A DNA stretch of 64,000 nt from Escherichia coli (lineage in GTDB: Bacteria; Pseudomonadota; Gammaproteobacteria; Enterobacterales; Enterobacteriaceae), in the NCBI RefSeq assembly GCF_044324785.1, contig NZ_CP172127.1. One strand, given 5' to 3'. Position numbers and translations under genes: made by a program. Each line of letters starts with the position of its first letter. The first letter of the stretch is position 1. Under the pieces are notes generated by a model. It did no database searches. It was not told the origin of the DNA and saw nothing but the letters and a program-made list of their open reading frames with translations. Positions 23,270-27,792 of the stretch are shown here, piece after piece.

Positions 23270-23272
23270 GTG

Positions 23273-23306
23273 AAAGCACCTCAAAAGAAGCCTCTTGAGG
23301 TGCTTT
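23273..23306. terminator. 12-bp-stem hairpin at the cobO 3' end and left islet boundary
   Basis: aaagcacctcaa-aagaagcctc-ttgaggtgcttt read directly; no clean T-run on either strand, so terminator function is uncertain. Confidence 0.4.
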
Positions 23307-23320
23307 AATCATGATTATAT

Positions 23321-23629
23321 TCAAGCGGCAATAGCGAAATTCAGAATACGTGTAATCTCATTCAAATGTCCCTGATATGCTTCATGATTCTCAGCGTCAA
23401 CATCTTCAATAAATAATATCAGTTCAGTAATTAACGCATTAGCATCGTCATAATTTATCCCGGCTAACTCTGGCGAAGTTTCAGTACCGTAGTTAATCGT
23501 CAGGTTGTTCATAACTGTGAGGATATGGATAAAATATTTATGACAAACATTACATGTGGTTTTATTACCCAAAGTATTATACAGCATATCAAGTAATGCC
23601 AGTATTCTACGGTTTTGCACATCGTTCAT
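23321..23629 (-). CDS. hypothetical 102-aa protein, islet gene 2 (no signal peptide, CNVCH motif, acidic C-terminal half)
   Basis: ORF preceded by strong SD aggagg about 7 nt upstream of ATG; starts 10 nt after the stop of the upstream lipoprotein gene. Confidence 0.55.
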   Translation of the reverse strand: MNDVQNRRILALLDMLYNTLGNKTTCNVCHKYFIHILTVMNNLTINYGTETSPELAGINYDDANALITELILFIEDVDAENHEAYQGHLNEITRILNFAIAA

Positions 23630-23639
23630 AAAAAGCCTC

Positions 23640-24641
23640 CTATAACATTATTCCGCTGGCAATAAGTAATTTTGCCAGCCCCTCAGACGCCTTTAACCCA
23701 CTAATGACCTGTGCGCGTAATATTTCATTTAATCTTTTTTGTTCAGCTGCCGTGCGTGTTTTATTAACGTATAAGCTTTTCAGATAATCACCCTTATCTA
23801 TAAAGGCATTTAAAGCCTCAATCGCAGGCATGGCAGGTGCCGATGCCTGTAGTCTGGTTTCATTCACATTGATTACTGAACTTAGAAACTCCTTCCTGTT
23901 TTTCAGAGTGTTAAACTCTGTATTCTTAGAGTTTTTAGATGCCGTATTATAATAAAACATATTATCATGCACATTCGCAAAGGTATAATTTTCAATCTTA
24001 TTGCTTTTTGTATAAATATCATTGCGCAAAACTGCCATGTTCTTTATAAGTCTTACCCAGTTTTCATCTACCGTTTTGCCTATTTTTCCAGAATTGACTT
24101 TAATTATATATAACTCATTGAAATAATTTACCAAATCTTTAACCGCTGCTGCAGATTGAGCTAAATCTTTGCTATGTGAAACACCAAGTAGTGTTTGTGC
24201 GTTGTTTGCGTGATCCAGAGCCTGTTTAAGTAATGCCACTTGCTGACTTTCCGTAGTTGCCATATCCTTTGTCAGAAGTTCCACATAAGCGCTCATGCTA
24301 TTAATGACTTCCATTGAAGCCAGTAATTTTTCTTTCTCGAAAGGGACTAATTGTACTTGTTTTGTATTTGGCCCTGAACGCTGGCATAATTTTCCGCCAT
24401 TCCCATCACCGCCTATATCAATGGTATAATCAGGTCGCAGGGCACAATCCGGATTAGTCGCGTAGAAATTAACAAGGAAGTTTTCACGAGAAGCATAGTA
24501 TTGTTTAAAGAAACTTGCATTCGCCGCTACTGCTTTGTTACCCGCAGTAATAACAGTTTCAGCTTGTTCGTTTTTCAATGCTTCAGTTGCACAACCTGAA
24601 AGCATTAACAGCGATAGAAATATTCCACTATATCTAATCAT
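23640..24641 (-). CDS. hypothetical 333-aa lipoprotein, islet gene 1 (signal peptide + lipobox LSGC, Ala at +2)
   Basis: 1-kb ORF in roughly 30% GC DNA; MIRYSGIFLSLLMLSGCATE...; SD aagagg upstream; Asn/Lys/Ser-rich mature region. Confidence 0.65.
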   Translation of the reverse strand: MIRYSGIFLSLLMLSGCATEALKNEQAETVITAGNKAVAANASFFKQYYASRENFLVNFYATNPDCALRPDYTIDIGGDGNGGKLCQRSGPNTKQVQLVPFEKEKLLASMEVINSMSAYVELLTKDMATTESQQVALLKQALDHANNAQTLLGVSHSKDLAQSAAAVKDLVNYFNELYIIKVNSGKIGKTVDENWVRLIKNMAVLRNDIYTKSNKIENYTFANVHDNMFYYNTASKNSKNTEFNTLKNRKEFLSSVINVNETRLQASAPAMPAIEALNAFIDKGDYLKSLYVNKTRTAAEQKRLNEILRAQVISGLKASEGLAKLLIASGIML

Positions 24642-24766
24642 AACCCACCTCTTGACGTTGAGTTTATCTCAGATAATTAAATAGTAATGTGGCTATTTCC
24701 GGGTATTATTCATAAGCAAGTATGAAATTAAATTAAAATACTGCGACTATTTATCATGCTTCAAAT

Positions 24767-24791
24767 GAAGAAAAGGCCCCGCAGGGCCTTT
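24767..24791 (-). terminator. rho-independent terminator of rluB
   Basis: On the minus strand, stem aaggccc-tgcg-gggcctt followed by ttttcttc. Confidence 0.7.
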
Positions 24792-24810
24792 ATTTTATAC
24801 TTATCTTAAA

Positions 24811-25896: not shown

Positions 25897-27792
25897 TTAC
25901 CAACCACCACCGCCTCCGCCACCCGCACCGCCGCCAGCACCACCACCGGAATAGCTTCGCCCCAACAAACTGGTATAGGCCCCGCAACTCAGGTGCGTCT
26001 GCAATGAGAATAAAACGCCACTACGGGCAATTTCCGGGGCGCTAACAGCCGCTGTGAGTGATGGGGTGATACGTTCTGCCCATTCTCTGCCAAGGTTTGC
26101 CGAGACCGCCCAACCTAACAATGCGTAATCCAGTTTCCGTGTTTCCCCTTTCCGCCGCCGCCCACTGTGTGTTGCCGCCTCTTTACGCGCAAGATAGTTA
26201 ACGATAGCTTCGCCGTGGGCATAACGTTGCTGCCCAGTTTGGGTAAACTTTGGCAGAAAAATATACCCAATGCCAGTGAGATAACCGGTCAGGAAAACAG
26301 AGCTAAAATAACCCGCTGGCATATACCAGTAAAAGAATACATCTCCGACATTGATATAGAGAGAATAGAAGGCCACGCCTGAACAAATCAGTGGTAAAAA
26401 CAAAGTGATGATTACACGATTAACGCAAGGCTTGTCATCATCGCGGGCAAACAAAAGCTCAAGGGAACAAAATAAGAAAGGAAGAAGCCAGCAGATCATA
26501 ATAAACATATCGCCTACCAGACTCATTCCTGCCCAGCCTACGGGACTCAGGTTACCGTAGAGAATGACCGCCAATATTGCCATTCCGCCCCATTGCAAAA
26601 ACGCATCAGGTCGGTAAAACGAAGACTTTTTACGCGGCAGATAAAATTTCTGCATCCGTAAAAATGCACTGCGTAAGACTCTGTTGCGTCTCCCCGTAAG
26701 AACGACCTTATCGCCTTTACGAAATAACGCTTCCAGTAATAACTGCTCTGCGGGCAGTAATACCGCATTATTTCTGGTCGCGCCTTCATTAACACGAATC
26801 AGGATTTGCTGGTTCTTGTCATACTGATCTTTCAGATGAATTTTGCCTTTCACAATCAGATTTACGATATCGGCACAAAAACCTTTATCGTCGTAAACCA
26901 GTTTCGCATCGAGACGTAACATGCCGGGCGTGTAATCTGGCGGAATGACATCGGTTTCAATCACATCTACCGGCGTAAATTGTGGCCTGCGCTTCCAGAG
27001 ATATAACCATCCACACGCCAGGAACAGACACGGAAACCAAATTAACAACGATGACGTAGAGGGTAAAAGAAGATGGCTGAAAATATTCGTCGTTTGTGGT
27101 GCCGAGGCATTACCAAGTAAAGCGTGAGGCCAGCGGTAGAGGACCGTGAAGTCTTCACGATAAAACGGATCGCGGGATTCAATTCTTCCGTCCTCAAGGA
27201 TGCGGCCATTTCGATATGTGTCGCCCTCTTCTCCAGTAAAGAGATCAATTTCGCTAAATGGATTACCCGCAATATCAGGCAACTGGAGAGAAAATCGGGT
27301 CTTATAGATTTCAAACGGCCACTTGTTACCGGTCACGTTCCAGATTAACAGATCTGAATCTCCCTCACGCAGGAAAGCATTTTTAACCTGATAATGAATT
27401 TGATAATGATAGTCGCCTTGAGGCAAGAAACGTTGTTTATCGCCCACGACAATACTCATTAACCCGATATGCCAGTCAAGATGCCAGGGTTCAGGAATAC
27501 CATCACGGGTGACGCCAACAATATGATAGTTCAGCAGTGCAGCGTCCCCATTAGGCTGCATCCATAGTCGTGGTAAATCACGATAAAATCCGTGCTTAAT
27601 CTGCTGATTTCGCGCCTGAAAATGAATGTTCTCTTTGATGTCGAGCACCCCATCCAGTTGCAGGGTGGCTTCAACATCAAAGAGCGAGATCCCTTCTTCA
27701 TAAAAAGGGATCTCCGTGTTTTTCGGATAACTCAACGAAGAGAAAAAAAGCCCAACTATCAACAGCAAAATGCAGCGATATATCCCTGCCAT
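25897..27792 (-). CDS. yciQ: YciQ, large inner-membrane protein (DUF2207-like), Gly-rich C-terminus
   Basis: 631-aa ORF; synteny between rluB and yciO. Confidence 0.85.
   Translation of the reverse strand: MAGIYRCILLLIVGLFFSSLSYPKNTEIPFYEEGISLFDVEATLQLDGVLDIKENIHFQARNQQIKHGFYRDLPRLWMQPNGDAALLNYHIVGVTRDGIPEPWHLDWHIGLMSIVVGDKQRFLPQGDYHYQIHYQVKNAFLREGDSDLLIWNVTGNKWPFEIYKTRFSLQLPDIAGNPFSEIDLFTGEEGDTYRNGRILEDGRIESRDPFYREDFTVLYRWPHALLGNASAPQTTNIFSHLLLPSTSSLLIWFPCLFLACGWLYLWKRRPQFTPVDVIETDVIPPDYTPGMLRLDAKLVYDDKGFCADIVNLIVKGKIHLKDQYDKNQQILIRVNEGATRNNAVLLPAEQLLLEALFRKGDKVVLTGRRNRVLRSAFLRMQKFYLPRKKSSFYRPDAFLQWGGMAILAVILYGNLSPVGWAGMSLVGDMFIMICWLLPFLFCSLELLFARDDDKPCVNRVIITLFLPLICSGVAFYSLYINVGDVFFYWYMPAGYFSSVFLTGYLTGIGYIFLPKFTQTGQQRYAHGEAIVNYLARKEAATHSGRRRKGETRKLDYALLGWAVSANLGREWAERITPSLTAAVSAPEIARSGVLFSLQTHLSCGAYTSLLGRSYSGGGAGGGAGGGGGGGW

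Follow-up and report, generated by a model that had tools for sequence, protein, structure and literature searches.

Within a 64,000-nucleotide stretch of the Escherichia coli chromosome (NCBI RefSeq assembly GCF_044324785.1, contig NZ_CP172127.1; hereafter the window), a two-gene islet separates cobO from rluB. We found that the second gene of this islet (gene 2, positions 23321–23629) is genuine and conserved, obligately linked and translationally coupled to the lipoprotein gene that precedes it (gene 1), and that it encodes an acidic, cytoplasmic four-helix bundle belonging to no annotated family. We tentatively propose that this bundle binds the gene 1 product, or its precursor, as a dedicated cofactor or in a chaperone-like manner, and that it is not an addiction antidote.

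A small gene coupled to a lipoprotein gene

The gene order around the islet is topA–yciN–sohB–yciK–cobO (btuR)–islet–rluB–yciQ–yciO. The islet is AT-rich, with a GC content of 0.30–0.40 compared to ~0.5 in its flanks. Its main elements, numbered as in the window, are:

23270–24810, no strand assigned: whole islet, from the cobO stop to the rluB stop, with two genes in ~1.5 kb; the K-12 counterpart is a 39-bp spacer
23640–24641, minus strand: gene 1, encoding a 333-residue prolipoprotein with the lipobox L-S-G-C17
23636–23641, minus strand: AGGAGG Shine-Dalgarno sequence of gene 2, overlapping the TAG stop of gene 1
23321–23629, minus strand: gene 2, an intact open reading frame (ORF) of 102 codons with an ATG start, encoding 102 residues

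An original prediction, made from the letters of this DNA, had described a 102-residue ORF at 23321–23629 that starts 10 nt past the lipoprotein stop behind an AGGAGG Shine-Dalgarno sequence. Its coordinates and translation matched exactly, and the junction reads as described: the gene 1 TAG stop lies at 23640–23642 and the gene 2 ATG at 23627–23629, giving a spacing of exactly 10 nt. The overlap of Shine-Dalgarno sequence and stop codon implies translational coupling of gene 2 to gene 1 and, because the ribosome-binding site of one gene is embedded in the end of the other, the two proteins would be made in fixed proportion. Every lineage retains the site, with tAGGAGG or GGAGG ahead of gene 2 in 15 of the 15 loci examined, and the spacing between the genes remains within 9–14 nt in every lineage.

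We surveyed 5426 complete E. coli genomes for the islet. Its 5′ part was present in 1237 and gene 2 in 1234 (~23%), always beside gene 1 and covered over at least 80% of its length in 1232 of the 1234 positive genomes. E. albertii, E. whittamii and two Citrobacter lineages carry this pair at the corresponding position. The co-occurrence of the two genes across genomes, suggested beforehand as a check on their partnership, is thus borne out within E. coli and in other lineages. In E. coli the rluB–cobO site is binary: either the islet is present or the flanks abut, with no alternative cargo in the sampled loci. Carriers include SE15 and uk_P46212, presumably members of an ST131-related lineage.

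Selection and natural knock-outs

Gene 2 forms one uninterrupted frame in all 37 loci that reach it, extending over 95–104 codons from ATG to stop in the 15 loci checked. Nei-Gojobori dN/dS ratios, restricted to comparisons with unsaturated dS, were 0.08–0.19 for gene 2 and 0.10–0.23 for gene 1; both genes are under purifying selection. A spurious ORF is ruled out by the combination of conservation, dN/dS, the conserved Shine-Dalgarno sequence and a confidently predicted fold. Stops or frameshifts in homologous copies, which had been named in advance as evidence against a real gene, were absent from the 37 loci; elsewhere, IS1 splits gene 2 in NZ_OZ040331.1, and P0014 and P0046 are shortened gene 2 variants.

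Gene 1 is disrupted in 6 of the 37 loci, and gene 2 is intact in those six. They comprise an internal stop in E. coli M114 (L002, 3372–4394; complete genome), an apparent frameshift in the E. albertii type strain NBRC 107761 (L017, 2898–3916), a gene called as three pieces (L014) and split alignments in L035, L037 and L038, of which L037 is a metagenome contig of low coverage. The 6-to-0 asymmetry in disruptions is not significant (P ~0.2) once the 3.2-fold difference in gene length is considered. The reverse situation was seen in a single case, the complete genome NZ_OZ040331.1 (L048, 2287–2984), in which IS1 has inserted into gene 2 beside an intact gene 1 of the common allele. In strain Ec-U3 (L051, 3097–3794), IS1 stands in place of the whole islet. 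Because natural single knock-outs of each gene exist, the two genes do not appear to form an addiction pair.

A diverged copy of the pair in Duffyella

Among 1.84 billion representative proteins searched exhaustively with phmmer, one distant relative of gene 2 emerged (P0044, 95 residues, 35–36% identity by phmmer/BLASTP, whole-library E = 4e-5), and a profile search yielded nothing further. This relative is encoded in Duffyella gerundensis, 14 nt downstream of the gene for a 347-residue lipoprotein that is 26% identical to the gene 1 product (E = 3e-29). Adjacency, co-orientation and coupling have therefore survived deep divergence and a changed genomic context. That gene 2 is a partner of gene 1, as first proposed, is well supported by co-occurrence, by the 9–14-nt spacing and by the Duffyella pair; the immunity or antitoxin role offered with it has been weakened, and none of the roles then listed has been demonstrated.

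In Duffyella, the pair and an oppositely oriented Mrr_cat nuclease gene form an insert (L012, 6605–9331) of 31–32% GC within a conjugative-element backbone of 56% GC, between a TIGR03747/DtrJ-like gene and the RAQPRD gene of an integrative and conjugative element (ICE). We compared this slot in ICEs whose backbone is related to the Duffyella element (L040, 5976–7773; L044, 6116–7744; L046, 6161–7558; L045, 6053–10287). It holds Septu PtuA/PtuB in Pantoea (PADLOC E = 8e-119 and 7e-77), an OLD-like ATPase-Toprim protein in Enterobacter (E = 1e-46), a 465-residue protein without known identity in Rouxiella, and purely metabolic genes in L045/L047. The slot is a variable cargo position, often but not always occupied by defence genes.

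A second AT-rich block of the Duffyella element (L012, 1–2000; 33–36% GC) carries genes for an NA37 nucleoid-associated protein and a 386-residue protein. The latter matches the NCBIfam model DS1_2_antiphage weakly and far below threshold (E = 7.6e-5; 22 bits against a 315-bit cut-off).

Gene 2 is predicted to fold as an acidic four-helix bundle

The gene 2 product has a mass of ~11.6 kDa and is acidic, with 13 Asp and Glu residues versus 5 Lys and Arg (pI 4.6; 4.4–5.6 across lineages). The original description of its sequence holds throughout. There is no signal peptide, in that the protein has neither a hydrophobic N-terminus (residues 3–21 correspond to helix 1) nor a membrane span, the best 19-residue Kyte-Doolittle window reaching 0.93; the C-N-V-C-H motif is found at codons 26–30; and the acidic C-terminal stretch, IEDVDAENHEAYQGHLNEITRIL, spans residues 74–96.

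Using AlphaFold2 with a 12-sequence alignment, we obtained a confident model of a four-helix bundle (pLDDT 89.8, pTM 0.84) with predicted helices at residues 3–21 (H1), 27–42 (H2), 60–78 (H3) and 82–101 (H4). Structure prediction, one of the checks originally suggested, delivered a confident fold, for which AFDB50 and BFVD held no significant relative. The helices are 50–58% hydrophobic, which is above the need of a soluble bundle core and suggests an exposed binding surface. Three elements of gene 2 stand out in the alignments:

23540–23554, minus strand, codons 26–30: C-N-V-C-H, with C26 and C29 invariant in all lineages
23408–23458, minus strand, codons 58–74: I-N-Y-D-D-A-N-A-L-I-T-E-L-I-L-F-I, the most conserved block, forming the N-cap and body of helix 3
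23366–23368, minus strand, codon 88: invariant His88, from the invariant columns of alignment A5

Across all lineages (alignment A5), the invariant residues are M1, N2, Q5, L16, N22, C26, C29, S52, E54, I58, A63, N64, I67, T68, E69, L70, L72, F73, I74, H88 and I92. H30 is replaced by lysine in the Duffyella homologue (C-D-N-C-K). The proportion of differing nonsynonymous sites (pN) is 0.02–0.13 over codons 58–74 and 0.00–0.13 in helices 1 and 3, compared to 0.20–0.36 in helix 4, which evolves 3–5 times faster in most comparisons, although the ratio of pN to its synonymous counterpart (pS) stays below 1 in this helix. The up-down-up-down topology of the model would place C26, C29 and H88 at or near the same end of the bundle, where H88 could act as a third metal ligand together with the two cysteines.

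Gene 1 encodes a basic, polymorphic lipoprotein

The gene 1 product starts with MIRYSGIFLSLLMLSG followed directly by C, a canonical lipobox. At this position Escherichia has L-S-G-C17, Citrobacter I/L-S-G-C and Duffyella L-S-S-C, and S15, C17 and A18 do not vary among the homologues, as expected of a bacterial lipoprotein. The mature protein is basic (pI 8.9 in the window, 8.2–8.9 across lineages) and is predicted to be mostly helical, its AlphaFold2 model (pLDDT 48.6) being informative for secondary structure only and too poor for a fold search. Invariant C66 and C86 bound a hypervariable stretch (alignments A4 and A6), which looks like an exposed, disulfide-stapled loop.

The C66–C86 stretch and the next ~15 residues (codons 66–100; window 24344–24446) form the most variable part of the lipoprotein, which also differs in length by 7 residues from one haplotype to another. 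Two of 11 gene 1 relatives (alignment A6) also gave weak matches to the Pfam family HEPN_DZIP3 (best E = 1.5e-3); the conserved Rx4-6H motif is not apparent in them, and the protein is exported.

Haplotypes and recombination

At least three haplotypes of the islet circulate in E. coli. Haplotype 1, the window type, was found over its full length in 424 genomes; haplotype 2, in 776 genomes, encodes proteins 66% (gene 1) and 73% (gene 2) identical to those of the window; and in haplotype 3, gene 1 is of a third type and is accompanied by a gene 2 with 90% identity to the window copy. In a sliding comparison, the haplotypes are 92–98% identical over the flanks, over the upstream region and up to about codon 70 of gene 1. 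A sharp fall to 55–70% follows, extending over the remainder of gene 1 and gene 2, and ~90% is regained directly past the stop of gene 2. The haplotypes are old, as their synonymous divergence from one another has reached saturation (pS 0.84). Recombinants also occur: L002 and L050 pair gene 1 of type 3 with a window-like gene 2, and in L021 gene 1 is of the window type and gene 2 is the 90% variant.

Comparison with L003, L002 and L008 delimited a block at window positions 24430–24810, from the 3′ end of rluB to about codon 70 of gene 1, that is 92–100% identical among E. coli haplotypes. Its identity to E. albertii, 82–98%, is above the 83–90% that the two species share in the coding sequence of rluB, and past the block identity drops abruptly to 38–70%. 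This pattern suggests a recombination boundary or a conserved regulatory or leader element.

Searches for known relatives

Neither protein gave a significant match in Pfam (single sequences and alignments), NCBIfam, PADLOC or PHROGs. At E ≤ 10, the only Pfam family returned for gene 2 was zf-FCS, a weak match over residues 21–40 (E = 0.14), and at E ≤ 0.1 nine members of the gene 2 family matched neither colicin immunity (Im7/Im9) nor Hha/YmoA nor FliS/FliT families. In PADLOC-DB 2.0, no family was found at E ≤ 1 for gene 2, gene 1 or their Citrobacter and Duffyella relatives, and the weak matches of gene 1 in NCBIfam were confined to the signal-peptide region. PDB sequence profiles returned nothing significant for either protein. 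Foldseek comparison of the gene 2 model with AFDB50 and BFVD revealed no significant relative; the closest solved folds to this model were cell-death bundles of the CC, MLKL and HeLo kind, though designed bundles scored as high.

No relatives of the pair were found in a phage collection, in viral contigs or in prophage contigs. True plasmids likewise yielded none, three "plasmid" matches being, most likely, chromosome records with a wrong label or fragments. When genomes and metagenomes were scanned with a gene 1 profile, only Escherichia-like loci were recovered. A comparison by hhalign gave a probability of 0.1, so gene 2 does not derive from a duplicated part of gene 1. Nothing relevant emerged from the literature when it was searched by accession, locus tag and the names of the flanking genes.

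Two further candidate identities for gene 2 were considered and rejected. The segment NRRILALL, which might pass for a Tat signal, lies in helix 1, and the Duffyella homologue lacks the RR pair. A ZAS anti-sigma factor (HxxxCxxC) is incompatible with the C-x2-C-H motif of gene 2, whose neighbours are the lipoprotein gene and cobO, with no sigma factor gene.

Gene 2 as a possible binding cofactor of the lipoprotein

We favour, tentatively, the reading that gene 2 is a dedicated cofactor of the gene 1 product, on account of the translational coupling, the charge complementarity between the proteins (gene 2 pI 4.4–5.6 versus 8.2–8.9 for mature gene 1), the hydrophobic-rich helices, the conserved helix 1/helix 3 face and the tolerated single knock-outs. 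Three elements of this reading are inferences: that gene 2 binds gene 1, that it has a metal site and that it serves as a cofactor. Gene 2 would act by binding rather than catalysis, and the lack of a match to any enzyme or DNA-binding family counts in the same direction. The conserved face of helices 1 and 3, together with a probable structural metal site at Cys26, Cys29 and His88, may engage a constant surface of the partner, while the faster-evolving helix 4 would track the allele. The likeliest partner would be the basic gene 1 product or its precursor ahead of Sec/Lol export, and the gene pair as a whole would constitute a polymorphic, horizontally mobile envelope module.

Three points weigh against this proposal. 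A Sec/Lol lipoprotein and a cytoplasmic gene 2 product end in different compartments and could meet only before export. To our knowledge, there is no dedicated cytoplasmic chaperone for Sec-dependent lipoproteins. Moreover, the recombinants described above mix types, and gene 2 therefore does not co-vary with the central, most variable part of gene 1.

The known systems that come closest differ from the pair in several respects. Flagellar FliT/FliS and the Tat chaperones (REMPs, such as TorD) serve clients that use the flagellar/type III secretion or Tat route, unlike gene 1, whose signal is of the Sec/SpII type; gene 2 matches none of these by sequence family, and its fold match to them is partial and generic. 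On the lipoprotein side, TraT, phage Cor and phage T5 Llp resemble gene 1 in being outer-membrane-type lipoproteins on AT-rich mobile DNA, polymorphic and variably present, and in one lineage gene 1 too lies within a conjugative element. They differ from gene 1 in being far smaller or unrelated by sequence, and in working on their own, with no coupled partner in the cytoplasm.

Alternative roles

The pair could instead be an unrecognised anti-phage, anti-plasmid or exclusion module, in which the lipoprotein blocks or senses entry and gene 2 acts as a cytoplasmic effector or signal receiver. We regard this as unlikely, yet it is the main rival of the cofactor reading, and several observations point toward it. 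The Duffyella pair is AT-rich and sits in the ICE slot next to the Mrr_cat nuclease gene, the same slot holds Septu or the OLD-like ATPase-Toprim protein in ICEs of related backbone, and the pair is polymorphic for presence or absence and has diverged deeply into at least three haplotypes, its lipoprotein containing a hypervariable loop bounded by cysteines. Yet neither protein matched a PADLOC model, the slot also accepts the purely metabolic cargo of L045/L047, and the E. coli site, which holds the pair or nothing, is no multi-cargo defence hotspot. Relatives are absent from phages and prophage contigs, and a cytoplasmic bundle without a membrane link offers no assignable role in such a module.

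Somewhat less probable still is that gene 2 is an immunity protein or antitoxin neutralising gene 1 toxicity, in the manner of CdiA-CT/CdiI or a colicin and its immunity protein. The architecture is reminiscent: as in CdiA-CT/CdiI and the nuclease colicins with Im7–Im9, a small, acidic, helical cytoplasmic protein is encoded directly downstream of a larger, basic, exported one, and a constant 5′ part (here ~70 codons at 95–98% identity) gives way to a diverged 3′ part and partner gene. The disruption of gene 1 in 6 of 37 loci, compared to none for gene 2, would also fit, but this asymmetry is the non-significant one noted above, and shortened variants of gene 2 are on record. Unlike the known systems, gene 1 and its relatives contain no toxin domain recognisable in Pfam, NCBIfam, PADLOC or PHROGs, and colicin and CDI (CdiA/CdiI) immunity families were unmatched by gene 2 in Pfam at E ≤ 10. 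The alleles are homologous at 65–73% identity, not swapped unrelated modules, and gene 2 variants ~90% identical to each other pair with gene 1 types only ~65% identical. The one genome in which IS1 splits gene 2 beside an intact gene 1 is viable, whereas a toxin and its immunity protein would predict self-lethality.

It is improbable that gene 2 is an autonomous metal-binding or redox-sensing protein (CxxC plus His), for instance a regulator of the islet, linked to gene 1 by co-transfer only. C26, C29 and H88 are invariant even in the 35%-identical homologue and would meet at or near one end of the modelled bundle, and residues 21–40 match zf-FCS weakly. The protein nevertheless has a single CxxC, no DNA-binding motif or family and a strongly acidic composition, and its strict adjacency and coupling to gene 1 over deep divergence favour a joint function.

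A more specific version of the defence reading, a two-compartment system carried as mobile cargo in which a polymorphic outer-membrane lipoprotein detects or blocks phage or conjugative DNA and the bundle is the executioner or signal receiver, appears to us rather remote. Considered on its own, the idea that gene 2 is a membrane-permeabilising four-helix executioner of the plant CC, MLKL or HeLo kind is very unlikely. It draws on an acidic E-D-V-D in helix 3, which we take to be a superficial likeness to the EDVID motif. In the fold comparison above, however, de novo designed bundles score equally, identities are 6–16% (7–14% in three matches to CC/MLKL/HeLo bundles), and the search of AFDB50 gave no significant relative. 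The Rx_N, HeLo and MLKL families were unmatched in Pfam at E ≤ 10, no profile match was obtained, and, unlike those bundles, gene 2 has no attached sensor domain and is carried constitutively without a recognisable activation domain. Finally, a c-type cytochrome or other heme protein, suggested by the fit of C-N-V-C-H to the CXXCH pattern, can be dismissed together with a spurious ORF, given the lysine at position 30 in Duffyella, the lack of a signal peptide and the evidence for a real gene presented above.

Islet boundaries and neighbouring genes

The intergenic regions of the islet contain two further elements:

23273–23306, no strand assigned: perfect 15-bp hairpin lying between the stop codons of gene 2 and cobO
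24642–24810, minus strand: gene 1 upstream region, with the rluB terminator hairpin at 24772–24791 (from a terminator scan) and an AT-rich leader/promoter

The hairpin at 23273–23306 has a fold energy of -22.3 kcal/mol (z = -3.98), with none of 200 shuffled sequences equally stable, and probably terminates transcription in both directions. Upstream of gene 1, E. albertii and the three E. coli haplotypes are 92–100% identical to one another. Rfam recognised no RNA family in the islet, which is not bordered by direct repeats.

In K-12 MG1655, the 39-bp spacer of the empty site (L018, 5729–5767) contains its own inverted repeat, atgccggatatgacgtccggcat, unrelated in sequence to either terminator hairpin of the islet. 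Beyond rluB, the yciQ product (DUF2207; window 25897–27792) ends in a Gly-rich tail, GGGAGGGAGGGGGGGW. yciQ is annotated as frameshifted in strain N3 (L001, 5628–7522), whose islet matches that of the window at 99.9% identity, and the gene is absent between yciO and rluB in E. albertii and Citrobacter.

Significance

The module is an orphan two-gene pair at a fixed chromosomal site in ~23% of complete E. coli genomes, with no family assignment for either protein, and the empty site of K-12 provides a ready isogenic test bed for it. Should the pair prove to be merely an accessory lipoprotein and its helper, its interest would be routine. Its deep allelic divergence, its presence/absence polymorphism and an ICE slot shared with Septu and OLD-like genes suggest frequency-dependent selection on an envelope function; should this function be defence, exclusion or kin discrimination, the pair would represent a new protein family for it.
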